DNA of 64,000 bases. Source: Anaerolineales bacterium (GTDB lineage Bacteria > Chloroflexota > Anaerolineae > Anaerolineales > E44-bin32). A model generated the notes under the pieces. It was not told the origin of the DNA and did no database searches. It saw only the letters and a program-made list of their open reading frames with translations. Below are positions 21,001-64,000 of this stretch, piece by piece. Within the stretch, counting starts at the first letter, position 1. Each line of letters starts with the position of its first letter. Both the position numbers and the translations under genes were made by a program. The stretch is taken from contig DAOUDW010000087.1 in the NCBI GenBank assembly GCA_034430895.1, forward strand, positions 4,408 through 68,407, in the 5' to 3' direction.

Positions 21001-21066
21001 CAGCAGCGCCAGCGGCAGGGCGCGGCGAAAAATCTGTGTCGTTTTGTGAGAAATATTCGTTTTCAT
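18004..21066 (-). CDS. large bitopic cell-surface protein: signal/anchor, Cys-rich region, Ig-like domains, Pro-rich linker, TM, charged coiled-coil, glycine-zipper hydrophobic region, helical-repeat tail
   Basis: Features in order: N-terminal LPLALLLGLLVVVPVLA; 20+ Cys in the first 200 aa; DTRPPSV / DTIAPTT Ig-like boundaries; PPEDPPAEPPGDTGGGDTGGGD linker; TM LLAGAAAVAAVGAAMNVVTAA followed by KKKRKDEEKK; EAEQEAARLEAEREAIKAEREA coiled coil; GVGIGSAVAVGVGSLLVTAAFGF...GLGASLAV. Confidence 0.7.
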   Translation of the reverse strand: MKTNISHKTTQIFRRALPLALLLGLLVVVPVLADYIGPDRTVTTYVNQRKRCHYVAVHDPVGPGYDSCTLNLYVPPNDSCPSNVSGYFSNDSHSCGSGWPFDWPSCCNDPETSCSITPSSSTVSCSAGETGCRSVAQTTTHPPATISGNINCPQTGDNGYCTAAASLSLSGDEPLSGYSIITLEGTQNGATFACSGDSCAINLVEGANAFTFWALSDWGDSSLMGSTNRGVDTRPPSVNASASGISGSGSWYVSAVTIEASAADPSPGSGLASFQAAVDGSGWNAYSGPITLNNGNHTVELLATDNAGLSDSASMSFQIDTIAPTTVITDPTGTTWATGTITLSGVSSDLNLSGAEISTNGGSSWSGLSPDGGGNWSTTWDTHTVANGSYSVRARGLDQAGNVGGAAAVTIMVDNGEPHIYIPASWPIWRRVAINVVDNGIGVDRVRLTIHGGSYGERVYNWHSGQDDFKWDRLFGDIVAPIGGYPVEVEAWDQVGNKGAAWGEIVIPEPDEVEQEDDPGVLSVAPPEDPPAEPPGDTGGGDTGGGDMAPAAEDPPAAPSVVTFESEPETETEEIAPPAGSSNLLAGAAAVAAVGAAMNVVTAAKKKRKDEEKKQAAAAAIFNQTQIALEEKQAQNAAQAKWEAEQEAARLEAEREAIKAEREAQGITTGQPAPPYFIYVEAQKQRQREEDLRKRKEEQKQAELRAQEEELRRADRVDYRHTQVKEETIEAPPTGIMKWIGKAGKFINSMASAIDLRKIRFTPLPSGHVSVSAPGVPPGEKLAFRTGSDVNIPGTRYKPTTLSWTTLKSLGRRAFNGIKTNLGVSAAVNAYDYLLGSNKGGSLGEFTASTIVDTAVSTGVGIGSAVAVGVGSLLVTAAFGFTAPFAVLAGATVLVGLGASLAVDHFFGEEIAEIKQKFGATLDSGLSAWKGIRQNAQVIADHVGDKLSEVSDNIQTTVNNTIENVRNTVTDVAATLEQTSNNIGTAVENGIDNVKSTVGNAAKTAGDAVSNFFNGLFGGD

Positions 21067-39196: not shown

Positions 39197-39223
39197 CCTG
39201 TAGGGGGGAAAAACCTCATCCGG
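39197..39223 (-). repeat. interspersed repeat copy (inverted orientation) upstream of the giant gene
   Basis: cctgtaggggggaaaaacctcatccgg is the reverse complement of 55190-55215 at 24 of 26 positions. It merges into the palindrome GAAAAACCTCA-TCCGGA-TGTAGTTTTC. Confidence 0.6.
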
Positions 39224-39516: not shown

Positions 39517-39836
39517 GGTGTATAAACTTGTAAGTGAGATCGGTAAAAGCAGATTTGATGAGGGTATCTTAAGTATCGTCATAAGTGCGATATCATGTGG
39601 TGTTAAGTGTCCTAGTAGGTCGATTTATCACCAAATGCTTGAATTGCCGCTCGAGTTGTTGTAATGTGATACAAGTTTCGGTATTGTTCATACATTCCCT
39701 TTCGCTGGTATTCAACAACCCAATATCCAACTCCCTGCGTGGTTAAACCATCCTTTGCGCATACCAACAAAGCCCACGATGTTCCAGGGAGATGACAGAC
39801 CTGTATCTTGAAAGTTACTGTTTCTGGAGAGGAAAA

Positions 39837-42800
39837 ATGTCCATGTCCCGCACAACCCTTACTTCTGTAATTCGCGATTTTTCACGACCGCGCTTCCGGC
39901 TTTATCGATTACGATCAGCCATTATAAAGATATTAAACGCCGGCGTAGCTGCATCCATGCTTACTTCGATGAGCGGCGTGGCTCTGGCTAGTGCAGCATC
40001 TGATGCGGATACAAACGTGGAGATTCCTCTCCCGGCCCCTTACAAGAGTATCGAAGCTCTCGTAGAGCCCAACATCGTCCAGAGTACATTCGACAGCGAT
40101 GACGAAGGATGGACGATCGTCGGTGATGGGGACGGTCCGACATATAACGCCACCGGTGGCAATCCGGGTGGGTACATCAGCTCTACAGACCAAGCGTCAA
40201 GCGAATATTGGTATTGGCAAGCCCCGGCGAAATTCCTCGACGATCAATCCGCTGCATATGGCAGAACACTGAGCTTCGACCTTGTCCAAAGCGTCACCGA
40301 TGACCAGGATGATCAAGATGACGTTGTCCTGGTGGGAGATGGTATCACGCTTGTATTTGACACTTCATATAACCCGGGAGATACGTGGACGCATTATGTG
40401 GTCACGTTACATGAAAGTGCCGGATGGCTAAATTCAAGCACAGGCCTTGCGCCATCTTCTATCGAATTCACCCAAGTTTTGACGAATCTCGAATCTCTTC
40501 TCATCCGCGGCGAGTATCGTGTTGGCGATGATACCGGCGGACTCGACAATGCTGCTTTTTCGGTACTCTGCCCAGAAACGGGGAATCTCATTGTTCCAAT
40601 TGGAACTTCGTGCTGGCTCGAGGCTGGCGAATATACATTCGACAGCATCACCGTCGAAGCTGGCGGGCTGATTTATCTCGAAGGTGATCCAGTTACCGGC
40701 GAAGGCGTCATTCTCAATTCCACGACAATCGTTGTGGAATCTGGAGGTGAGATGACCGCCACTGCGCTGGGATACCCGATCGGCCAGGGTCCGGGAGCCG
40801 GGAGCGGGACCGATAAGACGGGCGGCGGGGGACACGGCGGCTATGGAGGAAATGGGACCGAATACAATGCAATCGGCGGTGTGGGATACGGTTCGCTGTT
40901 CGAGCCCATCACGCTGGGTAGTGGCGCGGGAGATCGCCCTGAGGGTGGCACTGGAGGGGGTGCGATCCATCTCATTGTGAACGGCACACTGCAGCTGGAC
41001 GGCACGGTATTGGCCGATGGTGGTGCTGGCACCCAATACGAACGGGGTGGCGGCGCCGGTGGCAGCATCTGGATTGAGGCGGCCTCATTGGCCGGTTCGG
41101 GCCTGATCCGCACGAATGGCGGCAATGCGGGTTACATGGGCGGTGGAGGAGCGGGTGGGCGCATCGCCATCGATGCAAGCAGCAACAGCTTCACCGGATC
41201 GGTGAACGCACACGGCGGCACGGGCAACCAGGCCGGTGGTGCGGGGACAATCTACTGGACAGTGGATGATCACCTGGTGGTCGACAACGGCGGCAACAGC
41301 GGTAAGCAAACCCCCCTCGAGGAAGACGATTACGACTTCGAAAGCATCACACTCAATGGCAATGCCATCCTGCAAGTGGAAGGGGCTAACTCTTCTATCA
41401 CCCTGGACAATACAACCATCCAGGGGGATGGCACAGGCAGGCTCACTCCATTCGGGACGGCGTATGTTCCTGTTGACCTTATTATTAATGATTACACGTT
41501 GAATTTGGAAGGGCAGATGCCGGGGGTGCAGACTGTGACTGTCGAGTCGGGCGGCGGTCTGATGTTCAGGCCGGGCTCACAGTTCTACTCTGGCTCGTAT
41601 GCCTTCCAGTCTATTGAGGTGAGAGACGGCGGCAAATTGTATGCATACCCGTATATCGCGGGTGGCGGGGTTTATTCGAATGATTATGGCCTCACGCTCG
41701 AGGTCGGGAACCTGACCGTCGATGCTGGTGGTGAGGTTACAGCCACCGGGTTGGGATACCCGATTGGGCAAGGACCGGGAGTCGGGAGTGGAAGCGATGA
41801 CACGGGTGGTGGGGGACACGGTGGTCTGGGAGGAAATGGAATTGAAGCCAATGCAACGGGTGGTGGGGCATACGGGTCGCTTTTCGAGCCCATCACGCTA
41901 GGCAGTGGCGCGGGTAATGTAGGACAGGGGGGGAGCGGAGGGGGCGCGATCCATTTACTGGTGAGCGGCACACTGCAGCTGGATGGCACAATATCTGTCG
42001 ATGGTGGTTCTTCTACCCAATACGAACGGGGAGGCGGCGCCGGTGGCAGTATCTGGGTCGAAGCGGCATCCTTTACCGGGACGGGTTTGATTCGCGCCAA
42101 TGGTGGCAATGGAGGCACACAGGGTGGTGGTGGTGGCGGCGGGCGCATTGCCATCGATGCAAGCAGCAACAGCTTCACGGGCTCGGTGAACGCGAGTGGC
42201 GGTACAGGGAACGAGAGAGGTGGGTTTGGTACGATCTACTGGACGGTGGACGATCATCTGGTGATCGACAATGGCGGGGTCAATGCTAGACCATCTGTTA
42301 TCGTCGAGGGGGATTATGATCTCAATCTCATCACGCTCAGTGGCAATGCTATCCTGCGGGTGGAAGGTGCCAGCTCATCCATCACTCTTGATAACACAAC
42401 CGTTCAAGGAGATGGTACAGGTAGACTGATCCCATTTGGCACAGTCTTAACTCCGGCAGCTTTCACGGTTGATAACTTCGCCTTGGATTTGGAAGGAAAA
42501 TTTGATGGGGTTACGAATCTCACCGTAGGAAGCAACGGCGAATTGATCCTACGAACATATACAGCGCTTTATTCTGGAATCCACACCTTCTCCAGTGTTG
42601 ATGTGGTTTCTGCCGGGCGGCTAATATTCGTACCATACAATAATGGGGATTCCGATTACACGAACGATTCTCCATTCGAGCTGCACGTAGACACACTGAA
42701 TATTGATGCTGCCGGCATCATCACCGCTGAAGGTTCGGGGTATCCTCGCAATCAAGGTCCTGGCACGCCGACGTCAAGTGGTGGTGGCGGGGGTGGTCAC

Positions 42801-45800
42801 GGCGGGGCTGGGGGGAACGGACTTCACGGATCTGGGGGAACATCATACGGTTCCTTGTACCAACCGGTTCTATTCGGTAGTGGAGGCGCCGATGACGCAA
42901 ATGGTGCAGCATCTGGAGGCGGCGCTATTATTCTGGTCGTCGAAAATGCGATCACCGTCAATGGGATTCTTTCGGTTGATGGCGCATCAAACAGTGCCGT
43001 TAGCAGCAGTGGAAGTGGAGGTGGTGGATCGGGAGGTAGCATCTGGGTTACAGCCGATACCCTCAATGGTTCAGGCGTTGTATCCGCTGACGGTGGTAAT
43101 TCCACGAATGGCGGAGGCGGCGCGGGCGGACGTATCGCCGTCTACGCCGAGACAGTCGATCCCAACCTTTCCCTTTCCGTCATGGGAGGAGCTGGCGGCG
43201 ATCCTGGAGACCTGGGGACGACGTATTTGGGAAATCTGGATCCCACACTCTCAAGCATTACCATCGATCCGGACACTGTGCCCACCCTCGTTTCGAGTTA
43301 CGGTGAGATTAGAGTAACTTTACGCAACGAATTTGGATTGCCCATCCCTGGCAAGCCGGTATCTGTGGCCTTGATTTCTGGTGATGAAGCCTACATCAAC
43401 GATCAACTCGTGGGTTTGAATGATTTTATCGACATCGGATTGACGGATATCGATGGTAATGCGACCGGTACGATCCGCGCCGAGACCCTCGGTCTACGAA
43501 CGGTCCGAGCTCGCAGCGAGCAGGAACTCATCCTGGCTGAGGCGACCGTCGAATTTATTCCGGGGCCCTTCGATCCTGGCACATCCACGATTGATGCCAC
43601 TCCGCAGCAAGTTCCGGCTGACGGCAGTACACCGGCCAACTTGATTGTCACGACGCGTGATGCGTTTGGCAATCCTGTCCCCGGAGCTGAGGTGACCCTG
43701 ACTACTCCAAGCGGGACGCTGACCCAACCTGCAACACCTACCGATGCGAATGGTCAGACCAGCGGTACGCTGACGCACGATGCCATCGAAGCCATCACGG
43801 TTTCCGCACTTGTCGACAGCGTAATGTTTGATGACGAGGCGACTGTTGATTTTCATGGATCCGATCTGGAGGCAGATATTACTGCCCCAGACGAAGCAAT
43901 TGCCGATGGCACAGTGACGTATTCGATTACTGTGAAGAACATGGATCTGTTAACCGCGAATGGCGTGACGGCAACCCTGGAGCTTCCAGCCGAAGTAACC
44001 TATCTCTACGACAGCGCGCCCACCGATCCAACGCAAAATGGGAACGAGTTGACCTGGGAGCTGGATGCTCTGCCTCATAACAATGCAGTGTCTTTCAGCG
44101 TCACAACCGACGTCAATCCAACTGTACCCGCTGGCAGTACACTCACGGGTGTGATTAATGTAAGCACGACGTCACCGGAAGCCAACACCAGTAACAATGT
44201 AAGCAGCGACAGCACGACCATCGTCGATGCGTTCGATTTCACGGTCGCATTGATCCCCACCAGCGCCACGCTCAACATGGGTGGCGCAGCGCAGTACACC
44301 ATCCGAATTCGCAACGTCGGTTTCGTCGGTGACAGCTATGCCATCAGCGTCGATGGTCTAGATGCAAATTGGATCGAGCTTGGCGACAATGAGATCGGCA
44401 TCTCCCCGGGTGCGAGTCGAGATGTGACACTGACCATATCGCCGGACGGTTGCCAGGCGGAGGAAATCTTACCCTTCAGTGTATCCGTCCAATCCAATGG
44501 CGGCACCATCAAGACAGCCCAGGGTGAAGTATCGCTGGTACAGGTGCCGAACATCACGCTGGATAAACCGAAGGACAATTCAACATCCGGTTCTCGTTCC
44601 GTGCTCTTCAGCTGGCGCACGAATCCGACCACAACGGGCACATTGACGGTCTACCCACAGGGTCAACCTGCCGAAGCACAGACTTTCAACTCCTCTCAAG
44701 GCGCCACGCACAACATCCAGGTGGAGGATCTCGAGCGCTACGTGACCTACGAGTGGTACGTGCAGGCCGATTCGACTTGCGGTACGCAAACCAGCGCAAC
44801 ACGAACCTTCACTGTCGGCAGCGGCATTGTGTTCGTAAGCCGCAATCCTTCCTTTGAACTTGCCCGTGATTACGATCAACGTTTCTCGATCACGGTGCGC
44901 AACGATGACAGCGAGGCACACACCTTACTGGCGACGGTCCAGAATCCTTACGAGGATTTGATACTCAACTTCGTCGGCAGCGGCAGCGTAGACGAAACGA
45001 TCACACTTTCCGCAGGGCAAAGCCGCACGCTGGAACTGGTCGTGCACGCCCAGGACGCAACGAATCATGAGTACGACCTTTTGGCCGAGATCACCGCTGA
45101 TGACGGTACTTCAATTCCACTGACCGACAACACCAGCATCCATCTGACCGTGCTCTTCGAATTCGATGTGAGTGTGGTTGAGGATTCAGTTGACCCGATC
45201 ACCGGCGTGAAGACCTATACCGTCACCAACAACGGTTTGCCGATCACCGACCTCGAAATCAGCGCCGCCGATCCCACCAGCGGCGAACCGGCGCGGGTGA
45301 TGTTCTTGCCTTCGATCTCCCACGGAAAGCTCGATACTGGGGATTCAGTCACCTTCGATATGATCCCGCTTTTCGACGAACGGGATGTCGCGGGGATGAG
45401 CGCCCTACCCTCCGGCGGTAATCTGGCCTCGTATTTGCCCAACAGTGAACCGGGAATTATTAGTGCGAATCTGATCGTCGGCGGCGCTGGCCAGGAACAA
45501 GTACAGTCGTCGAATATGAGCTGCCCTTCCGGCAGCGTGCACAGCGCGCCACTGGAAGATGTGTGTTTGGAGCTCCAAAACAGCAACTGGTACTGCACCA
45601 ACAAACCGAACATCAGCATGCCTTTCTACCTGCCCTTTATCGTCGAGCAGGATCTGATCGAATCTGTCAATCTGCAGATGGATTTCCACCCAAGAAGCAA
45701 CGTTCAGGATCACACTACCAGTATCTCTTTGAACGGTGAGCTACAGGGTACGCTGGATAATATGATCCCCAACGGCACATTCTCCACGCGTGTTCCCCCC

Positions 45801-48800
45801 GACACGCTACACACCAGCGAATACGGTTCGACAGTGCAGGAACTCGAACTGAATTCGGTTCATAACAATCCGGGGCATTACGTATCCGTAGCCGATTTCA
45901 GCCTGGGCATCGGTCTTCAATCCACCACGGCGTATGTTTGCGCTGAATCTCCTGAAGATGCCAGCGAAAACGCCATGGATGCCTTCCATCTCAAGCCCTC
46001 GGAAATTGCTTCGGCCTGTGCTTCGGTCGGTATTCCTGTCGAATCGGTCTTGTCCTCCGGAGACGATTGCTGCGCAGCGTACGGCGCCACACAGGTTAAC
46101 GTGGGTGGCGAAATCAATACTCGCACGGGGGGCATGGACTATTCTTTTGTTGACATATCCATCCCCACCTCTGCTGGAACGCTTTCTTTCAAACGATGGT
46201 ATTCCACACTCACGCTCGAGGACTATGCGGATACACTAGGATATGGTTGGACTCATAGTCTGGACACGCGTCTGATCTTCCCCGACGATCCTCTCGGTCG
46301 TGAGGGTGTGGTATTGATGAAGCTGCATGCATCCAATCGCTACCAATTCACCATCGAGGATGACGGCACCTTCACACCCTTTCCTGGATTTACTGGGGAG
46401 TTGACCGCTTCCGGTGATCCGCTTACGTTTACTTACGCAACACCAGGACAATACGATTATCATTTCGACGCGGATGGGAAATTAATTTCCCGATCCGACC
46501 CTCGGGGTAACGCATTGCAATACACATATAACGCGGAAGACCGTTTAATCCGTGTCGAAGACGACAATGGGCAACGTTACCTGGAACTGGATTACGATGC
46601 ATTGGGACGAGTTAACTCGGTTCAGGATCATACAGATCGTGGCGTTACCTTTAACTACAACGCCGCCGGTGACTTGAGTTCCAGCGTCGATTTACTCGGC
46701 GGCACCTGGACCTACTTTTATGATCCTACGCTGCCGCACTACCTGTCTGAAGTGCGTGATCCCAGCGGCACCACCCTCGAACGCACGGTTTTCGATGAAC
46801 AGGGCCGCGCCGTAGAACAGTACAACGGTGAGGGCGAGTTGGCCGTGCGTCTCGAATATGAAGGTTTCGGTTCTACCAAGGTCTACGAAGCCACCGGCAA
46901 CCAGTCGATGCACGTCTACGACAGCAATGATGCCATTGAACGCCAGGAGGATCCTTTGGGTGGCCTGAACCGGCGTGAGTACGACGACAACTTCCGCCCC
47001 ACTATGATCACCGACGAGGACGGCGACACTACCCACCTGACCTGGAGCGAGGACGGCACCAACCTGACCCAGGTGATTGATGCCGAGGGCAATCCGGTCA
47101 ACCTGTCTTACGACGAAAACAACAACCTTACTTCTATTGTCGATCCGCTCGATACGGAGACCAGCTATGCCTACGACGGGTTGCTGCTGACCTCCAGCAC
47201 CGACGACGAGGGCAATACCACCAGCTACACCTACACACCTGAAGGGTATCTGCAAAGCATCACCGACGCGGCCGGAAATACGACATCTTACACTTACGAT
47301 TCTTATGGCCAACAAGTTTCGATGACCGATGCCTCAGGCAACACCTGGCTCTACCGCTACGACGATCTTGGCCGCCTGATCGAGAACGAGGATCCCAACG
47401 GCGTGATCGCACGCCGCGAGTACGACGCTGCCGGACGGATGATCCGCTCGACGCGCAACTACGATCCCGCCCGCCCGCAGAACGACGAGAACCTTTACAA
47501 CATTGTCACCGAGTACGTCTACGACGCCGTGGGCAACCAGATCGAAGTCATCGACACCTTCGGGCGTAGCACACAGTATGTCTACGACGACGCCAATCGT
47601 CTAATCCGCATGTTCGATTCCGCCGGCAACGAGACGACCAATACCTTCAACAACGCCGGGCAATTGGTTGCTACGACCGATGTCTTGGATCGCATTACAA
47701 CTTTCGTCTACGATGAACTCGGCCGCATGGTGGAGATGCACGACGCGCTGGGCAACATCACCACCACGGTTTACAACCCCGACGGCACCGTCGCCAGCAC
47801 ATCCGATGCGTTGGGAAACAGTACTTCGTATACCTACGACGACCTCAAACGCGTCGCGGCCACAACCGATGCCCTCGACGGCACGACGACCACTACCTAC
47901 GACGAGTTAGGCAACGTGATCGCCACGACGGACGCCCTGGGGAATACCACAACCTACGAATACAACTCGCTAGGCCAATTGACACACCAAACCGACCCCG
48001 AAGGTGGAAATATACAGTACGTTTACGACGAACTCGGCAACCGCATCGAGACCATCGATCCGCGCGGGAATTCGACGTTTTATGTCTACGACGATCAAGG
48101 CCGCCTGGAGACGGTCACCGATGCGCTGGGCGGTACAACGACATACACCTACGACGCCTTGGGCCGTCGCCTAGCCATTACCGATGCAGAGGATAACACC
48201 ACCAGCTACAGCTATGATGAACTCGGTCGACAGGTTTCTGTAACTGATCCGTTGGGGAACACGACTTCTACGGAATTCGATGCGCTCGGCAATGTACTCA
48301 GCCGTACGGACGCCAATGAAGAGACCACCACGTATGTTTACGACGTGCTTGGCCGACTGGAATCCCAGACCGACCCGCTAGGTGGCATTACGACCTATAC
48401 CTACGACGCCGCCAGTAACCAACTCACGGTAACCGACGCCGAAGGGCACACCACCACGACGGTCTACGACGAACTCAACCGGCCGGTCTCGGTGACTGAT
48501 CCCCTGGGAAATACAACCACCACAGCCCATGACGCCACCGGCAACGTACTCGCCACCACCGACGGCTCGGGGCAGACGATCACGTTCACCTACGACGAAC
48601 TGGGCCGCCAGGAGACGGTCACCGACCCGCTGGGCAACACGACGAGCTACGCCTACGACGCCGTGGGCAACCGCATCTCGCTGACCGACACCAACGGCGT
48701 GGTCACACGCTACGAGTACGATGGGCTGAACCGTCTCACGGCAGTGGTCGAGAACTACCTCTACGGCGCGCCAGCCGATCACGAGACCAATGTGCGTACC

Positions 48801-55357: not shown

Positions 55358-57265
55358 TCAAGGATTAAGTACTTGGAGCAACGCTGTACTTGGGCTTGGT
55401 TTATCAGGATCCTGTGCTTCAAAAACTTGTTGTTCATTAGCAATACTAATTGGACACCGTTCCCAGAGGTTATGACGAGCGAGGAATGAGTCAAATTGCA
55501 TGCCCGAAGCACCAACATCAATACGCCTCAATTCATATGGACCATACGCATCAATCCCCTTTTCGGCCCACAATTTCCATACTTTTTCTGTCCAGACGAG
55601 GCCATTTCCATGTCGTTCCCATGTATCCCACCAATCTGTTAGTTTCAAGGTGATTTCAGGTCCATAAATGCCTTCGAACTTCATAGGTAGACAGTGAGGG
55701 TCATTATATTCGAAGAGTTGCATTCGCTCCTCTACAAGTTCCAGAAGTTCTTTCTTCTTAACGCGTAGAATGTCAAGCGTGGGTTTATTGAAAACGACAG
55801 CGTATTCACCTACTGCTTGATCACCACCTACCATGTCATCTGGATCTGAAACTTTTCTTACAACGAGAAATGGGCAGTTTTCATAAAGATTGTGTTCAAT
55901 ACTCCAGATTTGTTTTCTAAGTTCAATAATCGCCATCGTATTTACATATAAGCTAACAGCTATGTTAAGTTCGAGGTCGACATTCAAAAGCTTTTTTAAT
56001 GTCTGTTCATATGCTCGCATATATCCATATGCCATATTTATATTAATGAGACCAGGGTTGACCTCCATTGAATTGTGCACATGCATTTCAGAAAATATTG
56101 GGATATTCTCCACATCTGCAGGCCATTTGCCAAACTCTGGCTTTATCTCATTAGCCGTTATTTCAGCTGATTGGGTGTCCATGAGACGATAGAGAATCTT
56201 GACCATATTCGAGTTATGGTAGCTGCCCGCTGGCTCCCTTAATGGCTCCTCAGGTCCAGCTAATATTGAAATAACACGCTCTGCTCCAAGCTCAAGAGCA
56301 GCCCTTATGGGGAGTACGTCTCTCACTCCTCCGTCTACAAAATGTCCATCCTTATATGGATCAGCCCGTAAATCTTTCGCTTCATAAATACAAGGGATCG
56401 AAGATGACGCGATAGTACCTTGGACAAGGGCATCCTTAATAGTACCCATCCCATTCTCTGCATCCAACTGCCAAGACACTTCGGGCGTATTGGCATTTCC
56501 TTTAATAAGTCTTGCATCTTCGGTCACATACCATGTCTGGGCATCCTCGAGACACACTGTCGCAAGACGCATCTTAATGTAAGGTGTGAGAGATGTACCA
56601 AACTTGTTAAAATCAACTTTCGCCTTTATTAATTCCTCTATTGGCTTGAGTGTGTAAAGGCTAGGAGCTGAAAAGAATAGGTTTATTACCTTTAAAATCT
56701 TTCCCAGCATATCTGTTAAGTCCTCAATCACACCAACGGCCAAGGTCCCGAAGGATAATATATTCAAAAGTACAAAACCGGCACCAACACCGGGAAGTTC
56801 AGGCTCACCCCCATTCACCCCTCCTGTCTCAATAACTTGGTCTATATCCACATTGAGATCATCTAATATTTGAAGTATCTCTCCGATGTTTTTATGCGGA
56901 AGGTACATGTCATTTTCACTCTGAAGGGAAAGAAATAAACTGACGAGATCCTTGACGCCCTTATAGCCAGATTCCGCAATTTTAAGGGCCATAATTGCTC
57001 CTACTGAAGTTCCACAGACATATCTCAAATTGATCTTTTTCCAAATATCAGATCTCGTAAGATAATCTAGAGCACCTACTTCGAAACTTCCTTTGGAGCC
57101 TCCACCAGAAAGTACTAATGCAGTGGCTGGGACATTATCATCTACATGTCCGAAATGTCTTTTCTTCAGGTCTAGCGGATCAAGTCCTGGACGCTCAGGC
57201 TCCTCAACAGGAATTTCACCTATTGGTACAATTTCGTGATCCCTTTCTGGGTCTAGGTCAGGCAT
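55358..57265 (-). CDS. patatin-like phospholipase with large C-terminal extension
   Basis: Oxyanion LVLSGGGSKGSFEVGAL, nucleophile elbow GTSVGA, and catalytic Asp FVDGGVRD. ATG at 57265 follows GGGGAG. About 300 aa after the catalytic domain have no recognisable motif. Confidence 0.85.
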   Translation of the reverse strand: MPDLDPERDHEIVPIGEIPVEEPERPGLDPLDLKKRHFGHVDDNVPATALVLSGGGSKGSFEVGALDYLTRSDIWKKINLRYVCGTSVGAIMALKIAESGYKGVKDLVSLFLSLQSENDMYLPHKNIGEILQILDDLNVDIDQVIETGGVNGGEPELPGVGAGFVLLNILSFGTLAVGVIEDLTDMLGKILKVINLFFSAPSLYTLKPIEELIKAKVDFNKFGTSLTPYIKMRLATVCLEDAQTWYVTEDARLIKGNANTPEVSWQLDAENGMGTIKDALVQGTIASSSIPCIYEAKDLRADPYKDGHFVDGGVRDVLPIRAALELGAERVISILAGPEEPLREPAGSYHNSNMVKILYRLMDTQSAEITANEIKPEFGKWPADVENIPIFSEMHVHNSMEVNPGLININMAYGYMRAYEQTLKKLLNVDLELNIAVSLYVNTMAIIELRKQIWSIEHNLYENCPFLVVRKVSDPDDMVGGDQAVGEYAVVFNKPTLDILRVKKKELLELVEERMQLFEYNDPHCLPMKFEGIYGPEITLKLTDWWDTWERHGNGLVWTEKVWKLWAEKGIDAYGPYELRRIDVGASGMQFDSFLARHNLWERCPISIANEQQVFEAQDPDKPSPSTALLQVLNP

Positions 57266-57529
57266 CAGGCTCCCCTTTCTTTCTTTATCTTCGAAGATAA
57301 TAAGTAAATGTGTGAAGTAGGTTGAAAAATTAAAAACCCGACTTAAGATGAGTCGGGCTTGCATTGCCTTTTGAAATTATGTGGCTTCCCCCGACACCAC
57401 ACTATTGTTAGTTACACTAAGACAAAATACTATGTGTCAATATTATACAGGATGTAGATTTGGGATTCAACTTCTGTGATGATGCCAGATAACGAGTGGG
57501 GGACAAGTATGGCCGAACCATCAGGATAT

Positions 57530-57557
57530 CCTGTAGGGAGGAAAAACTATATCCGTG
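57530..57557 (-). repeat. interspersed repeat copy (inverted orientation)
   Basis: cctgtagggaggaaaaactatatccgtg. Confidence 0.55.
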
Positions 57558-57603
57558 TTAAAATCCGGCGCAAACTCACCCTGTAGTATGGGAATATTTT
57601 ATT

Positions 57604-57664
57604 AGGATGATGTTTTTCTACCCAACAAGGTCATTTTTATAGAACGGATGTACATTTTCGGCCA
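57604..57664 (+). repeat. interspersed repeat composite (GGATGATGTTTTTC... plus GAACGGATGTACATTTTCGGCCA)
   Basis: Same two-part architecture as 54909-54966. It overlaps the annotated start of the 57648 ORF. Confidence 0.6.
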
Positions 57665-58007
57665 TCACAATGGCTATTACGATGCCTGTGCTGTGATGAT
57701 CCGTCGACTCTTAGAAACCTTAATCATCGAATGCTATGAGGTACACAAGATCGCCGATGATATTTTGGATGCTAGTGGTGACTTTGTGAGATTGGATAAG
57801 CTTATCGATTGCTTCCTCTCTCAAAAGGAATGGAACATAGGCCGCGACACAAAAAAGCAGTTGAAGAAACTACCATCAATCAAAGGCGTTGGAGATCGAT
57901 CTGCCCATAATAGACGATATATAGCTTCAAAAGATGATATTGATCGAATTGCTGATGATACTAGGTTAGCTATACAGGAACTAGTATCTATTGCATTCGA
58001 AAAGTGA
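57648..58007 (+). CDS. DUF4145/HEPN-like domain protein (possibly N-terminally truncated)
   Basis: GYYDACAVMIRRLLETLIIE and IKGVGDRSAHN resemble the DUF4145 blocks (aca...R.llE / lR..GN.aaH). The start codon lies inside a repeat that also occurs at 54943. Confidence 0.45.
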   Translation: MYIFGHHNGYYDACAVMIRRLLETLIIECYEVHKIADDILDASGDFVRLDKLIDCFLSQKEWNIGRDTKKQLKKLPSIKGVGDRSAHNRRYIASKDDIDRIADDTRLAIQELVSIAFEK

Positions 58008-58136
58008 AATACCTTGAAACAATTTCCAAGGTATTCTAAGTGCTAAGTACAAGTGATCAGTTATTTTCGATAAATAGTCGAAGTGCTCTAAGCCTTATCA
58101 TTGCCTCGTGCCGTATTGCTCAGCGAGGGCATTCAT

Positions 58137-59312
58137 TTACAATTGATTGTGTTCTTCACTGTCTGTGTATATGTACTGCTTACGATAACTTTCCCTCAAC
58201 TCATCGATAACCAGTAATTCATTATCTTCTGACGCAAAATACCAGTTCTGCCACCCATTGCATGGACTACCACCCATCAAATGCTTTCCCGCTTGATGGA
58301 TTGAACCCTCAAACCCATCTGAAAGCCGAAGTTTTCCATCTGGTTTAATAAAGGCATTTCTTGCACGATCCTTCTGGAAAAATAGCTGCTGCCCTGGCAG
58401 CAAATAATTTGTTTCAAGCAAATTCGCAAAACCAACACGCGGGGCTAAGCGTTTTTTATCGCTTACATCAAACACATCATCAGCCCGTGGCTCGGATAGC
58501 ATCGGTTTTACGTCATCAATTCGTTTTTTAGCAATCTTGATGTAGTCTCTGTCCTGCTCAATCCCAATCCAATGGCGGTGAAGCTTCTTTGCTACGGCTC
58601 CTGTTGTACCAGTTCCAAAAAATGGATCCAAGACAATATCTCCCTTTTGTGTCGATGCAATTAAGACACGAAATAACAAGGCTTCTGGTTTTTGAGTTGA
58701 GTGGGCTTTCTTGCCACCCTTTTTTTTGATTCTCTCAGCTCCTGAGCAGATTGGTAAAACAAATTGTCTCGGAATTGGCCAGTCACTGCGAAGCTGTTTT
58801 CCTTCATTAAACTCTTTCATCGCATGATGATTGAATGAATATTTTGCACCTTTTGATTTGCTAGCCCATATTAGCGTTTCATGGGCATTCGTCAAACGAA
58901 CTCCTCGGAAATTTGGCATAGGATTCGTTTTAATCCAAACTACGTCATTTAAGATCCAATAACCCAAGTCTTGGATGATTTTCCCAATTCGATATATATT
59001 GTGATAAGTTCCTATCACCCAAATAGTTCCTGTATCCTTTAGTACCCGCTTGCATGCGTTTAACCACTTTTTACTAAAGAGGTCGTATTCACCATTGTTT
59101 TCAAACTGATCCCATGAATCATTTACAGCGTCAACTTGCGTCATATTAGGACGCCATAATTCGTTTTGTAGCTGAAGATTGTATGGAGGATCGGCGAAAA
59201 CGAGATCAACAGAGCTTTCGGGAAGAGAGTTCAGTACCTCAATACAATCCCCTTGGATTATCTGATCTACTGGCAATTCGTTTTTCATAATGATTTTAGT
59301 AATACCTGTCAA
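58137..59312 (-). CDS. beta-class N6-adenine DNA methyltransferase, CcrM/M.HinfI family
   Basis: Motif IV VFADPPYNL precedes motif I DPFFGTGTTGAVA (beta-class order). The C-terminal RVGFANLLE...LPGQQLFF...PDGKL...GSIHQAGKHL...CNGWQNWYF is the CcrM-type extension. Confidence 0.85.
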   Translation of the reverse strand: MTGITKIIMKNELPVDQIIQGDCIEVLNSLPESSVDLVFADPPYNLQLQNELWRPNMTQVDAVNDSWDQFENNGEYDLFSKKWLNACKRVLKDTGTIWVIGTYHNIYRIGKIIQDLGYWILNDVVWIKTNPMPNFRGVRLTNAHETLIWASKSKGAKYSFNHHAMKEFNEGKQLRSDWPIPRQFVLPICSGAERIKKKGGKKAHSTQKPEALLFRVLIASTQKGDIVLDPFFGTGTTGAVAKKLHRHWIGIEQDRDYIKIAKKRIDDVKPMLSEPRADDVFDVSDKKRLAPRVGFANLLETNYLLPGQQLFFQKDRARNAFIKPDGKLRLSDGFEGSIHQAGKHLMGGSPCNGWQNWYFASEDNELLVIDELRESYRKQYIYTDSEEHNQL

Positions 59313-60171
59313 TTCTTTCTAACAATGATTTTGCTAGATTCTGATACTCATCAGATTTCTGCTTAGAAAAATGGCCAAACAACAACATCAGGGTCGTCCC
59401 CTCGCTGAATAATACACGAATAATACCATCAGCCCAAATCTGTTCATTCGATATCAGTTTTCTCCAATAATGTAGCCGGATTGATTTGATATCTTCGAAA
59501 CTCTCTCGTGGTGATGCATCGAGATCAATTTCAGGAAAGTCATCGAGCTCCCTCCTCCAATCTGTTAGCCAAGATACAAATTCGAACCAAACTGTAGGGA
59601 AACTTAGGTATGTGAACAAATCCTTTCCATAGAACAGGTACAGGTCTAGGCCGTAAATATCCTTTAATTTGTCCAATTGCTCCTGGTAGAACGATTTGCT
59701 TTTTGAAAAGGCTGGATCAACAAAGTACATGATGCCGATTAGATTCTTATGATGCTCTTGGTAGAGCCGATCTAGTTTCTCCTCGAAATTCTTTATCTGA
59801 CCACGCTTCTTTGTTGAGTCATGATCATCCCGCATTTTTTGCTCAATAAAGAAGTGTTTTTTTCCTTTCGCGAAGTATTGATCCAATGATAGCGATGTTT
59901 TATCATCGATGTTGAGAACAAGATCAAGGTTAGTATATCCTTGCTCCGCAAGGATTTCTCGCAGCAATAGTTCAATAGCATCCCCGAACCGAATCTCGTG
60001 AGATTGCAATAGATTTTGAATTATCTTCGCCCGAGGCTTCGTCGGTCGAAAATCACCCAGGTATCTCTCCGGATTCAAAGCAAGTTTCTCAATAATGTTT
60101 ATCTTATCGGCTTCGAATACCTGAGAGTGCAGAAGCCTTATTGCTTTCTTGGAATCCATTCCTAACCCCAC
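59296..60171 (-). CDS. uncharacterised protein, candidate PD-(D/E)XK restriction endonuclease partner of the methyltransferase
   Basis: SLDQYFAKGKKHFFIEQKMRDDHD gives a D-x13-E-x-K arrangement. The gene overlaps the methyltransferase by 17 nt and the upstream gene by 10 nt. Confidence 0.4.
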   Translation of the reverse strand: MGLGMDSKKAIRLLHSQVFEADKINIIEKLALNPERYLGDFRPTKPRAKIIQNLLQSHEIRFGDAIELLLREILAEQGYTNLDLVLNIDDKTSLSLDQYFAKGKKHFFIEQKMRDDHDSTKKRGQIKNFEEKLDRLYQEHHKNLIGIMYFVDPAFSKSKSFYQEQLDKLKDIYGLDLYLFYGKDLFTYLSFPTVWFEFVSWLTDWRRELDDFPEIDLDASPRESFEDIKSIRLHYWRKLISNEQIWADGIIRVLFSEGTTLMLLFGHFSKQKSDEYQNLAKSLLERIDRYY

Positions 60172-60971
60172 GGGATTTTAATGTACCGATGGAGCTTCGT
60201 GCTCCCGATGTTCTCTAATAGCCAGATCTCATCCTCATCAGGTGTTGATTCAGTAATTGCCTTGACAAAAAGGACTAGGAATAGTTGATCGAGCTTTCTA
60301 TGGTATTCTTGTCTATCTTCCTCGTATGGAAAAATGAACCTCACGATGGCAGTTGTCTCATCAACCAGATACGCCTTCCCTTTCTTCTTTGCAGCTTCAG
60401 CTTTGGTTAATACTCCGTCGCCAGTTCGAAATCGGCCTCCAACATGCGAGACAGAGTATCCCCAGAACAGGTCACTTGCTTCGCGAGCAACCCGCTTGTA
60501 GTAATCCGGTATGGATTCGCCATCTTCAAATTCATAAATTGGCGTCAAATCATCAAGATTGGTAGCCTCAAGCCTCTCAATGAGCGTATCTTCGTAAAAG
60601 AGATTATCCAAATTCTGCCGCAGCAGATTCTCATTTCGTAGAGGAAGGTAAAAATCGTAGATCTTTACTAGGTCATGTATTACATGATTATATTTGGAGA
60701 ATATCTGATTTTTCTGCCGGAAGAGATCACGAAAATCAGCCAGCAAGATTAATTTAATATTTCGATCAACATAATACTTCCTGTCAACCATTAAGGTTCC
60801 TGGCTCGAACTTGTCTACAAGGAATTCTCTGATTCTCTTGGAAATATTCGTGGACAAATTCTTTTGTGACCAACCTGTGTAATTTAACAATTCGCGGAAT
60901 ATTATCTCATTTCCTGCTTGCGCTTGGAGATATTCATAACACTTATCGATCTTTCGGAAATTCCTTGGCAT
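60162..60971 (-). CDS. hypothetical protein (269 aa), first gene of the methyltransferase operon
   Basis: Long AT-rich ORF with an N-terminal HTH-like segment (IIFRELLNYTGWSQKNLSTNISKRIREFL). No family recognised by eye. Confidence 0.45.
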   Translation of the reverse strand: MPRNFRKIDKCYEYLQAQAGNEIIFRELLNYTGWSQKNLSTNISKRIREFLVDKFEPGTLMVDRKYYVDRNIKLILLADFRDLFRQKNQIFSKYNHVIHDLVKIYDFYLPLRNENLLRQNLDNLFYEDTLIERLEATNLDDLTPIYEFEDGESIPDYYKRVAREASDLFWGYSVSHVGGRFRTGDGVLTKAEAAKKKGKAYLVDETTAIVRFIFPYEEDRQEYHRKLDQLFLVLFVKAITESTPDEDEIWLLENIGSTKLHRYIKIPWG

Positions 60972-61130
60972 TAGAAATCCTTTCGGCCAATGTCAATGAT
61001 TTGCCTAGGTGTAACCCGGCCTTGATTAAATTAACCCCACTTTCAATACCGATAATAAACTAGCACTAGGCAAATCTGGTTATTTCCTGGGTAGGATTTA
61101 GCAAGTTCTATCACGACGAGCTCTTATCTC

Positions 61131-61859
61131 TTAGAGAATGAAATCAGTATCAGTTTTTAGTGATTCATGTTCGTAATCTTTAGCAAGAGATTCATAATCA
61201 TAAAATGCAATCCGCTCAGAGATTGAATGAAAGGCGGTACGATTTACTTTATCGTGGAATTCGCGACGTCGAGAAGAATGAGCAACGATGATCAAACGAG
61301 TATTGAAGTCTTGAAGATCAAAAAATTTCAGTAATGAATTCTGGAAGTCAGTTGAATGTTCAATTTCGAATAAGCTATGAGGCATATGTCGATTATTAAA
61401 CCAACTTACATCGATTGTCGATGCACGCTTAACTAAGTCCTTATAAGTGAATATCGGGATCTTCTGTAAACTCCTAATTTCTTGAAGATGACAATTTAGA
61501 CAAAGCTTGTTCTTGTCCTGATTTGGTATGAATGTAGAATAGCCTCGCAAATTTCCAAGAGTAGCCAATAGCCCCTGATAATACGAGTGACTTAAAGTAA
61601 TAGACTCTTTCGACAAATCGATCTCATTATCTTCAGAGAAAAGTCCTAAACGACTTCGATATGACTCCAATGCCCAAAGACCTGGTCGAACCTTGAATAT
61701 CTCAGGTCTAACTTGAACAATGCGCCTTATTGAAGCATGTGGAGTTTTGGTTCTCCATTCAACCCCAGGAACCTTTAATGCTTCCCTATATAGCTGGGCT
61801 AAAGTGGCTTGACCGCCAAGACGATCTAATGTTTGAATAACTGCCTCATACTGCTTCAT
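61131..61859 (-). CDS. winged-helix (Mrr_N/HARE-HTH-like) plus nuclease-like C-terminal domain protein
   Basis: N-terminus MKQYEAVIQTLDRLGGQATLAQLYREAL...RPGLWAL. C-terminus IDVSWFNNRHMPHSLFEIEHSTDFQNSLLKF is a D...E-x-E/H arrangement seen in restriction-fold proteins. Confidence 0.5.
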   Translation of the reverse strand: MKQYEAVIQTLDRLGGQATLAQLYREALKVPGVEWRTKTPHASIRRIVQVRPEIFKVRPGLWALESYRSRLGLFSEDNEIDLSKESITLSHSYYQGLLATLGNLRGYSTFIPNQDKNKLCLNCHLQEIRSLQKIPIFTYKDLVKRASTIDVSWFNNRHMPHSLFEIEHSTDFQNSLLKFFDLQDFNTRLIIVAHSSRRREFHDKVNRTAFHSISERIAFYDYESLAKDYEHESLKTDTDFIL

Positions 61860-62134
61860 ATTTATAGATTGTACATTACGACAAGGTGAAATACGGATTG
61901 TCGTCGTATGGTTTTGAACTTCCAAGTTATGTGCTTATGATAGGGAGGTCCTCGCCATAAATACCAACCGCTAACCAAGTATATATAAATCATTCCCCTT
62001 TGCTATATAGATATTTCCAAATTGACGGGTTAATGTATCCTCGGAGGTGTTATGTCGAAATTTTACATAGCATACACTTTCATGCATGCGTAATCAAGCG
62101 GCCATCTATTTTGACACTTTTCTTTCGAGAGTTT

Positions 62135-62306
62135 TATAAAGCATAATATGGCCGGATTACTGGGGAAACTCAGCTTGAAAGCTCTTAGAAATAAAGCATA
62201 ATGTGGCCGAAAGTGCAAAAATAAAGCACAAGCTGGCCGTAAGTTCTTTAAACATCCTTTTCGTCAATACCGATTCTACACGGACAAGGTTTTTCCACCC
62301 TACAGG
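62135..62306 (+). repeat. iteron-containing repeat unit U3 (direct repeat of U1)
   Basis: Iterons at 62135, 62190 and 62221 have the same spacing as in U1, followed by ACACGGACAAGGTTTTTCCACCCTACAGG. Confidence 0.75.
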
Positions 62307-62333: not shown

Positions 62334-62483
62334 ATGGCAAATGTGAAAGACCTTCCAAGCTCAGTCGTTTGGCAACACTTGACGCGAACTACTCTACTTT
62401 ATGCTCGAGGGGAATCTGATATTGTGATTTCGTGCTACAAGAAACCTTTCGCTGCGATGATCCCGTTTCGGGATGGATTATGA
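62334..62483 (+). CDS. 49-aa Phd/YefM-like antitoxin fragment (not in the ORF track)
   Basis: MANVKDLPSSVVWQHLTRTTLLYARGESDIVISCYKKPFAAMIPFRDGL* resembles the Phd/YefM N-terminal fold pattern (ge.vvIt..gkpvAvliP). It is followed by an overlapping 10-codon stub. Confidence 0.35.
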   Translation: MANVKDLPSSVVWQHLTRTTLLYARGESDIVISCYKKPFAAMIPFRDGL

Positions 62484-62662
62484 AAACGGTCAGATTTTGC
62501 ATTACAAAGTAAGAAACGCGAGGACGGGAGCAAAATCCAACTGACCTGCCGTTAAAGAATATGCGAAATCCTTTCGGGGTCTCTGAGTCCCTTGCAATTG
62601 ATCGAAAAACCTATTTGATATATGCTTGGTACAGCTTTAATGACATTATTTCTTTTTGCAGT

Positions 62663-63277
62663 CTAGATTATTTAACACTTCAATATTATTACATTCCTTA
62701 TCTTAACCGCTGGATCCAGCCCGATACTATTTTACCTAATCCCACCAATCCGCAAAGTTATAACAGATACACATATGTGTATAACAATCCGATCCGATAT
62801 AACGATCCAACTGGGCATTATGTTCCAGCAGAGGTTTGTGCAATGGGTGGGGCAAATATACCCCATTGTAATTCTAAAACAGGTAGTTATTTTTACACTG
62901 GTCTTAACTCCGACTTAGAGTCAACAGACTGGGAAGATAGATATGGAGGACCTCTTGCAAAGAAGACATATGATCTGATATCACGTAATTATTATATTTG
63001 GGGAAGGGAAGGGTCAGAGGAGATCGAGAAAGGATTGGGTGAATATCCACCTCCGTTATTCGATATATCAAAATGGAATGGGTTTCGAGAAATAGTTACG
63101 GCTTTCAAGTTGGGCAGTCAACCAATCATGTGCCCAGATCTCTATATACTCGGATTAGATTCCTTGGGTATAAGTTGTATGTCCTCAAAACATTTGAGAC
63201 AAAACAGGCATTTCACTAAGAGAGTCTTTTCAGCCCCGATCTACACTGGAGTATACACCCTCTCCCGCATGGCATGA
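62663..63277 (+). pseudogene. orphan Rhs core-end plus alternative toxin tip, 3' end replaced by IS sequence
   Basis: LDYLTLQYYYIPYLNRWIQPD...NRYTYVYNNPIRYNDPTGHY aligns with RARYYIPWQSRFMSKD...ANDAPITSFDPTGHY of the main gene, and an unrelated tip follows. The ORF end overlaps the transposase gene. Confidence 0.7.
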
Positions 63278-64000
63278 GCCCTGCGACGCTTCTCCATGGT
63301 TCTCCGTTTGATCTCTTCTCTCCGATCCAGCACCTCCTTTTCACGGCCAAAATAGACATCGGCTGGCGTCAAATTGTCCAGCGCTTCATGATATCGACCA
63401 TTGTTGTAGTAGTCCACGAACGCCGCTATGGCGTTATTCAGGTCCGATGGAGAGTAGTAGTTCTCCAGCAGGACGACATTTTTCATCGAACGATGCCAAC
63501 GCTCGATCTTGCCCTGCGTCATCGGATGATATGGAGCACCGCGCACATGATCCATATGCTTGCGTTTGAGAAACCGCTCCAGATCTTTCGAAAGATAGGC
63601 TGGACCGTTGTCCGAGAGCAAACGCGGCCGGTGCCGCACACGGGCTGTTTCCAGCCCAGTTCGCTCAAGCGCCAGCTTCAAGGTTTCTTCGACGTCTTCT
63701 GCTCCCATGCTGGACGACAGCCTCCAGGCGATGATGTAGCGGGAGTAATCGTCCAGGACGGTGGACAGGTAATACCAGCCCCAGTGATTGAAAACCTTGA
63801 AATGGGTGAAATCGGTCTGCCACAGTTCATGCACCCGCCGAGTGGGTTTCTCGAACTTCTCCCGGGCGGGCACCATCTGGAACACCGGGCTCTGGATCAA
63901 GTCAAAGCTCTTCAGAATGCGGTATACGCTGGATTCCGAGACGAAATAGCCCTGCAGATCGGTGAATAGCCAGGCGATCTGCCTTGGAGATTTCTCCGGA
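63241..64000 (-). mobile_element. rve-type DDE transposase gene (IS3/IS481-like), 5' end beyond the window
   Basis: WQTDFTHF, LSTVLDDYSR and LLSDNGPAY...YHPMTQGKIERWH (D, D, E region). The frame stays open to nt 64000 (…SPRQIAWLFTDLQGYFVSESSVYRILKSFDL). Confidence 0.85.

Follow-up and report, generated by a model that had tools for sequence, protein, structure and literature searches.

Type II restriction-modification (R-M) systems are viewed as pairs of genes, to which a small controller (C) protein is sometimes added. The C proteins of the PvuII and Esp1396I systems are Xre-type helix-turn-helix (HTH) proteins of ~80-100 aa, and their genes are arranged in such a way that the regulator delays restriction upon entry into a new host. 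Type II endonucleases are themselves independent of S-adenosylmethionine (SAM), and the recognition sequence of HpyAIV is GANTC. Here, we analyzed a stretch of 64,000 nucleotides (hereafter the window) from an Anaerolineales bacterium of the Chloroflexota (contig DAOUDW010000087.1, positions 4,408 to 68,407), in which three tightly packed genes at 60971-58137(-) code for a 269-aa protein that we call K0, an endonuclease (R), and a methyltransferase (M). The closest relatives of several window genes also point to a probable source among Anaerolineae-like Chloroflexota. In the original prediction, these genes and their neighbours had been proposed to form a composite anti-phage arrangement. We favour a mosaic of four independent units, one of which is an ordinary R-M system with K0 as an accessory, controller-like component, a reading to which we give a probability of about 0.55; as part of the same explanation, K0 would be an accessory protein of a widespread and undescribed family tied to Dam/CcrM-type methyltransferase modules.

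R scores 213 bits against the NCBIfam model for HpyAIV (NF045832, cut-off 160) and matches the PADLOC profile REase_II with an E value of 5.5e-72. It aligns over its full length with the Helicobacter pylori loci at 44% identity, and contains a D...EQK motif (LSLDQYF...FFIEQK) that is invariant in close relatives. A scan of one genome per species identified 271 relatives when a three-sequence alignment was used as query, while a single-sequence search gave nothing. M has a Pfam N6_N4_Mtase domain (E 9e-62) and a C-terminal RAMA domain (E 1.3e-11), matches the PADLOC profile MTase_II (E 7e-159), and displays the motifs DPPY and FGTG in its sequence. Its score against the NCBIfam CcrM model, built on Caulobacter, is 526 bits and lies below the equivalog cut-off of 830, so that M would be CcrM/M.HinfI-like rather than CcrM itself. 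On these matches, we assign R to the PD-(D/E)XK endonucleases of the HpyAIV family, and M to the CcrM/M.HinfI-like methyltransferases carrying a RAMA domain. The family of M had been correctly recognized in the original prediction, where R was listed as an unknown protein; since R matches a known family of GANTC endonucleases, the two genes represent an ordinary type II pair. HpyAIV is among the active type II enzymes of H. pylori (PMC2615612), and the pair of the window most likely methylates and cuts GANTC.

The three genes had been described as a tightly overlapping operon. They are indeed packed together, but when the starts backed by homologues and by the gene calls of locus L092 are used (ATG at 60159 in the case of R) they are separated by gaps of 2-8 nt, and overlaps arise only with longer GTG/TTG starts: from the stop of K0 to the start of R there is either a 2 nt gap or a 10 nt overlap, according to the R start chosen. 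The order and spacing of K0, R, and M are kept in two independent metagenomic lineages where the flanking genes are unrelated, with identities of 67% for K0, 59-63% for R, and 69-77% for M, hence with a similar divergence across the three genes. K0 also lies directly before R in L001-L004 and L092. None of the homologous K0-R-M loci includes the patatin, DUF4145, or winged-helix nuclease genes that accompany the cassette in the window.

We compared this arrangement with the 80 genomic loci that best match the HpyAIV family. An N6_N4 methyltransferase is present in 76 of these canonical loci, and in all except one (75/76) the methyltransferase gene precedes that of the endonuclease, which is the order described for Helicobacter (PMC2615612); K0 is present in none of the 80. 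The window-type cassette is a rare variant: K0 comes first, and R and M stand in reversed order. We also observed that a sibling metagenome contig (L091:1-4556) corresponds to window positions 62959-60826, with 100% identity over 2.1 kb, then departs from the window 146 bp into K0 and continues with IS21 genes (IstA/IstB), which suggests that part of the population may carry a K0 broken by an insertion sequence (IS).

K0 has no match in Pfam, NCBIfam, PADLOC, or PHROGs, and neither do 103 aligned family members scanned singly. Its family profile retrieved nothing from PDB sequences even at E 10, no member could be found in phage and plasmid collections, and the literature on PDDEXK_11, and on SAM lyases with winged helices, yielded no account of it. 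A word-indexed search returned 498 homologues, and an exhaustive HMMER search of 1.84 billion representatives delineated a family of 693 clusters (E <=1e-3), with members in Chloroflexota, Acidobacteriota, Verrucomicrobiota, Proteobacteria, Asgard archaea, and others. Invariant residues include K45, P110, G171, Y172, G179, R180, Y201, D204, and E205, and the conserved motifs are GYSxSHVxGRFR, YLVDETTA, and EDEIWxLE. In the public annotation of the source contig, K0 (P0503) has only 209 aa, which corresponds to a start at an internal Met61; the 269-aa form, winged helix included, is backed by all homologues. K0 is a conserved and selected protein, and a real third component of the cassette. The original prediction had listed the extra 269-aa protein as unknown; it is genuine, and matches no known controller, specificity factor, or nuclease.

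An AlphaFold2 model of K0 (predicted local distance difference test, pLDDT, of 85) was compared by Foldseek, as had been proposed together with the original prediction; the matches in PDB and BFVD are weak. The predicted N-terminal winged helix resembles those of ArsR/PadR regulators (probability 0.91-0.99). The C-terminal domain is predicted to adopt a ferredoxin-like beta-alpha-beta-beta-alpha-beta fold, and its best PDB neighbour is the phage SAM lyase 6zm9, with E 0.017, probability 0.96, and a target-normalised template modelling (TM) score of 0.46. Further PDB neighbours are SAM and SAM-AMP lyases, PII-like proteins, and dimeric ferredoxin-like proteins, and the best matches in BFVD are small uncharacterised proteins from phages, with lengths of 112-153 aa (E 1.3e-3 to 1.9e-3, TM 0.54-0.60, likewise target-normalised). 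SAM lyases are PII-like trimers that bind SAM at the subunit interfaces (PMC7877911); the predicted likeness of K0 to SAM lyases and PII proteins is weak, and would hold at the level of the fold only.

More distant homologues of K0 (30-40% identity) were examined in 90 loci; in 62 of them, a methyltransferase of the Dam or CcrM type lies no more than 3.5 kb away. The commonest arrangement consists of a Dam-family methyltransferase, a 138-aa PDDEXK_11 nuclease, K0, and a protein of ~110 aa that we call K2. Variants of it have a CcrM-like methyltransferase, or a 256-aa HNH protein replacing PDDEXK_11, and the partner nucleases of K0 thus belong to three unrelated families (PDDEXK_11, HNH, and HpyAIV). 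Moreover, in ~17 non-redundant loci a methyltransferase and K0, with or without K2, have neighbours that include no recurrent nuclease family. K0 is genetically linked to Dam- and CcrM-type methyltransferases and indifferent to the type of nuclease; being indifferent to both nuclease family and methyltransferase class, it behaves like a regulatory or accessory module.

K2 is a domain of ~95 aa (WLRxNGYEDV...TRRNWWEVLAG...FPVL) with no match in Pfam, NCBIfam, or PADLOC. It often accompanies K0, and occurs as a small protein adjoining it, or fused either to the C-terminus of Dam/CcrM-type methyltransferases or to K0 itself (P0412, P0430, and P0440). A Pfam scan of the longer K0-containing proteins found no Pfam domains, and the fusions were read by eye as K0-K2. 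Through these fusions of K2 to K0 or to the methyltransferase, K0 is physically linked to the latter. The C-terminal domain of K0 is also found with other N-terminal regions (P0468 and P0494). Taken together, the observations on K0 and K2 suggest that R-M biology includes an accessory layer not recognised so far.

In the mechanism that we propose, the winged helix of K0 would bind DNA, its ferredoxin/PII-like domain may bind a small ligand, for example a SAM-related metabolite, and the protein would gate the expression or the activity of the endonuclease relative to the methyltransferase, working in this cassette like a controller protein. Such a role is suggested by the fact that K0 is the first gene, abuts R, and that R precedes M: this order, the reverse of the safe one seen in HpyAIV systems lacking K0, is risky unless R is controlled, which fits K0 as a controller analogue. 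One attractive possibility would be that K0 is linked to SAM or to the state of methylation. A more specific formulation is that K0, mostly together with K2, senses or acts on a SAM-related metabolite or methylation state and thereby gates restriction, or else represents a new endonuclease fold; this we put forward tentatively, and we would sooner expect it to fail than to hold. If K0 couples restriction to SAM supply or methylation state, this would explain how a host with SAM-independent endonucleases survives a failure of methylation, and type II systems would have in K0 a layer of safety or control.

A number of observations weigh against the explanation that we favour. In K0, invariant acidic and basic residues (D204, E205, E246-D247-E248, and R180) would also suit a catalytic site, and in the ~17 loci just mentioned K0 is the sole candidate effector beside the methyltransferase, as would fit a nuclease. 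The argument from gene order is limited to the window-type cassette, as the common Dam-type operons run M-nuclease-K0-K2. In addition, 26 of the 90 loci, mostly from Chloroflexota, have neither a methyltransferase nor other partners within 3.5 kb of K0, a few of these partnerless loci sharing a conserved UvrD-K0-NUDIX order. None of the fold matches of the C-terminal domain in PDB or BFVD reaches E <=1e-3, and their TM scores of 0.46-0.60 are obtained only with normalisation by the target. In the window, a 12-bp inverted repeat, GATTTGCCTAG, is found at -105 and -36 upstream of K0, but it is not kept in L001 or L003 as a conserved operator would be. Finally, GANTC is under-represented in the window (241 occurrences versus 314 +/- 17 expected, ratio 0.76), but three control palindromes are depleted even more (GGNCC 0.48, CTNAG 0.54, and TCNGA 0.63), while GCNGC and CGNCG are over-represented; the depletion of GANTC is therefore not specific, and we rejected it as a mark of active restriction. 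Other restriction systems of the genome, or effects of codons and composition, may underlie these deviations.

The main rival reading would account for some of these points: K0 would itself be a nuclease with a new fold, acting in restriction or as an effector, in which the winged helix recognises DNA and an acidic cluster is catalytic, and the cassette would be a system with two endonucleases and one protecting methyltransferase. The ~17 loci without a recurrent nuclease, the invariance or near invariance of D204, E205, E246, D247, E248, and E253, the tight packing with R, and the joining of the C-terminal domain to other N-terminal domains, as expected for an effector module, all go in this direction. 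However, K0 matches no restriction enzyme profile in PADLOC, NCBIfam, or Pfam, its top 50 PDB Foldseek matches include no nuclease, and its predicted fold is ferredoxin/PII-like; an ordinary restriction enzyme would be self-toxic in the 26 loci that have no methyltransferase nearby; the winged-helix motif (T41 and K45) is conserved with Dam-like and CcrM-like partners alike, which would make recognition independent of methyltransferase specificity; and enzymes of the HpyAIV family function elsewhere in two-gene systems. We consider a nuclease K0 unlikely; if it were one, it would represent a new restriction fold. Alternatively, K0, with K2 where present, might be a partner of the methyltransferase, involved in targeting, timing, or the reading of methylation state, and the HpyAIV endonuclease would be a later addition. 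The methyltransferase and K0 do form the conserved core, with a nuclease that is variable or absent, and K2 is fused to one or the other; the partner methyltransferases are of the Dam and CcrM families, which are often orphan epigenetic enzymes, and for winged-helix as for RAMA domains a recognition of adenine methylation has been either proposed or demonstrated (PMC11037411; PMC4738411). Yet, the gene that K0 abuts in the window and L001-L004 is R and not M, and K2 is missing there. Furthermore, the winged helix of K0 resembles those of ArsR/PadR, DpnI not being among the matches listed. A methyltransferase partner is in our view a doubtful alternative to the controller-like component that we prefer.

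As for the larger idea that the patatin, the HEPN-like gene, the K0-R-M cassette, and the winged-helix nuclease constitute a single anti-phage system, all the ORFs (open reading frames) named in the original prediction are present, they sit together in 6.5 kb of AT-rich sequence flanked by repeats, and domains of the patatin, HEPN, and nuclease types often serve as defence effectors (here with weak PADLOC matches). However, the K0-R-M cassettes found elsewhere do without the other genes, relatives of the patatin and of the 242-aa nuclease are found by themselves in unrelated surroundings, the DUF4145 gene has been truncated, and the genes lie on both strands with IS-end remnants between them. 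The PADLOC check that had been suggested for the island matched no multi-gene system model. A composite system is thus very improbable. The block consists of four separable gene units, in which the patatin, the DUF4145 fragment, and the 242-aa nuclease are neighbours of the cassette and not its subunits, and what looks like a defence island is for the most part a set of genes brought together by chance in DNA scarred by IS elements. The coordinates of all features are collected in Table 1.

Table 1. Features of the block and of its surroundings (window coordinates unless a locus is named).
Feature	Position	Strand	Remarks
K0, 269 aa, first cassette gene	60162..60971	-	winged helix ~1-85; ferredoxin/PII-like domain ~100-265 (predicted)
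R, HpyAIV-family type II restriction endonuclease (predicted), 291 aa	59296..60171	-	likely true start ATG 60159, giving 287 aa
M, beta-class N6-adenine DNA methyltransferase (predicted)	58137..59312	-	likely true start ATG 59288, giving 383 aa
Winged-helix + NmeDI_C nuclease protein (candidate), 242 aa	61131..61859	-	solitary gene unit
Patatin-like phospholipase, 635 aa	55358..57265	-	internal Met start at 57265; same as public gene call P0241
DUF4145 (HEPN-like) remnant, 119 aa	57648..58007	+	5'-truncated; ATG inside repeat D5
Left 168-nt direct repeat	54518..54685	+	probable solo right end of IS481-like element; terminates in GTTTTTCCACCCTACA
Right 168-nt direct repeat	62137..62304	+	probably another solo right end from this IS family; 84% identical to left copy
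MITE-like element (miniature inverted-repeat transposable element), ~100 bp	57531..57630		carries the IS-end motif in inverted copies; immediately precedes the DUF4145 remnant
GTTTTTCCNCCCTACA copies	39199-39214(-), 54670, 54862, 54879, 55199, 57532(-), 57612, 62289		
Orphan Rhs C-terminal fragment	62561..63277	+	BLASTP versus main Rhs C-terminus, E 7e-9 over YYIP...DPTGHY
K2 examples outside the window	L008:5799-6125, L036:4768-5106, L058:4824-5246, others		

The 242-aa protein matches the precomputed Pfam family PF27126 (NmeDI_C) and the PADLOC profile REase_II PDLC03534 (E 3e-8). It belongs to a family with more than 5300 matches and ~60% identity across Chloroflexota, Acidobacteriota, and Nitrososphaera, in which the NmeDI_C residues D150, E165, E167, and K178 are invariant. 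Its N-terminal similarity to HARE-HTH is weak (17.7 bits versus a cut-off of 25.9). A Foldseek comparison of its AlphaFold2 model (pLDDT 73) with PDB gave nothing significant, the weak structural hints being to the PD-(D/E)XK-type proteins Can2, EcoT38I, and YaeQ. Relatives were found in two independent contexts, flanked by guaA and a radical-SAM gene in one and adjoining a PIN-MazE pair in the other, and in neither does a DNA methyltransferase adjoin them; the methyltransferase that is close to this gene in the window belongs to the separable cassette. The protein is probably a solitary nuclease and a candidate for modification-dependent (type IV) restriction. It had been taken for an Mrr_N-like winged-helix nuclease: the gene is real and solitary, but its nuclease domain is NmeDI_C and not Mrr, and the winged helix is weakly HARE-HTH-like.

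Pfam Patatin matches residues 83-357 of the long patatin ORF with E 7e-20, and the motifs GGGSKG, GTSVG, and DGG can be read intact in its sequence. A terminator-like hairpin lies inside the supposed N-terminal extension. The gene had been credited with an uncharacterised C-terminal domain; homologues align over ~80% of its length, with variable lectin, carbohydrate-binding, or Ig-like domains, so that most of this region is an extension shared by the patatin subfamily. The contexts of two relatives contain no cyclase or defence partner, and the one with a full neighbourhood is housekeeping. Scores against models of anti-phage lipases and of the cyclic-oligonucleotide-based anti-phage signalling system (CBASS) are far below the cut-offs (25.6 bits versus 200 for NF041079, CapV), and no cyclase-like match was found among the six scanned ORFs. 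On the CapV score and the lack of a cyclase, we rejected a CBASS or other patatin-based system.

The DUF4145 ORF passes the Pfam cut-off (24.7 bits versus 23.1, E 2.5e-5). Among its relatives (45-52% identity), 13 of 17 have ~245-252 aa, with ~135 extra N-terminal residues, and an Anaerolineae relative is 60 residues longer. The frame upstream of the ORF is closed by stop codons. The HEPN-like domain noted in the original prediction is present, but as a remnant holding the C-terminal half of the family only, and not as an intact gene; a functional HEPN abortive-infection gene was rejected because of this truncation at the 5' end.

The block had been described as AT-rich and bounded by repeats. 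Its GC content is indeed 0.38-0.43 at 55-63 kb, versus ~0.5-0.64 across most other parts of the window, and two 168-nt direct repeats are present at 54518-54685 and 62137-62304, with 84% mutual identity, but these are not the borders of an island. Both terminate in the 16-nt motif GTTTTTCCNCCCTACA, which has eight copies in the window versus 0.09 expected. Elsewhere in Anaerolineales genomes, this sequence is found immediately 3' of the stop codon of genes ending in ...HxYYRxAA, an ending that we take to be typical of IS481-like transposases. The motif is most likely the right terminal inverted repeat of an IS481-like family, and, as both 168-nt repeats end in it, they would be two solo ends of one IS family. 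We also rejected the idea that they are att sites or duplications of a target site. IS elements have scarred the block, which is no discrete island with borders of its own.

Several further observations concern these elements. The motif copy at 39199 is inverted with respect to those at 54685-62304, which places the Rhs gene described below, with or without the AT-rich block, between inverted IS ends. Three to four degenerate 17-nt copies of the motif are arranged in tandem at 54862-54916 (GGTTTTCCCCCCTACAA / GTTTTTACCCACTACAA / GTTTTCACCCCCACATG). Repeats and IS-end remnants make up the stretch 54270-55357 after the end of the Rhs toxin, and no + strand ORF of at least 60 aa is found there as a candidate immunity gene. 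An rve-type transposase is encoded at 63241-63900. Rfam and tRNA scans of the window gave no matches, and a promoter/terminator scan gave a result not above chance. At 19001-21000, GC content peaks at 0.63-0.66, where the minus strand has an ORF of 1020 aa (18004-21066).

Upstream of the block, positions 39792-54269(+) code for a giant Rhs protein of 4825 aa with 25 RHS repeats. It is unusually large, and also contains 11 CarboxypepD_reg-like repeats, together with Big_1/invasin, Laminin_B, and DUF11 domains. The orphan Rhs fragment on the other side of the block keeps the motif that ends the core and continues with a different tail. The original prediction placed the block inside an array of Rhs orphans; the Rhs context is correct, but the window includes one orphan only. 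Just upstream of this fragment, at 62334-62483(+), a 49-aa ORF (MANVKDLPSSVVWQHLTRTTLLYARGESDIVISCYKKPFAAMIPFRDGL) looks by eye like the N-terminus of Phd/YefM-type antitoxins, and has no Pfam match.

Comparison with known systems separates the neighbours from the cassette. The window patatin shares with CapV of CBASS its fold, an intact Ser-Asp dyad, and an oxyanion motif, but it is twice as large, has relatives with lectin or carbohydrate-binding domains, and is not accompanied by a cyclase or any other CBASS gene. The 242-aa protein would be like the type IV enzymes DpnI and HhiV4I (PMC11037411) in combining a candidate winged-helix-like domain with a nuclease domain, and its relatives have no adjacent methyltransferase, a feature reported for modification-dependent enzymes, whereas its nuclease domain is not among the types of fusion characterised in that study. 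R.NmeDI (PMC2095814) has 351 aa and is part of an R-M system, while the window protein has 242 aa and is solitary.

The cassette itself is like HpyAIV (HP1351/HP1352) and HinfI in having a full-length endonuclease of the same family next to a CcrM/M.HinfI-type methyltransferase; it differs from them in that the canonical systems have two genes, with M upstream of R, while the window has K0-R-M and a RAMA domain on M. With SAM lyases, such as Svi3-3 and the T3 SAMase, and with PII-like proteins, K0 would share the predicted ferredoxin-like fold of its C-terminal domain, and is itself tied to SAM-dependent methyltransferases; it differs in having no sequence similarity to them, an extra helical insert, and a winged helix, and the fold match is weak (E 0.017). 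In Svi3-3, the SAM-binding residues are Gly56, Tyr58, Glu69, and Gln104 (PMC7877911). Compared to C proteins, K0 is larger (269 aa), is predicted to consist of a winged helix and a ferredoxin/PII-like domain, has no sequence similarity to them, and gave no HTH_3/Xre match in Pfam and family scans. What the cassette has in common with C-protein R-M systems is the gene for a predicted DNA-binding protein located directly upstream of, and coupled to, the gene of the endonuclease.

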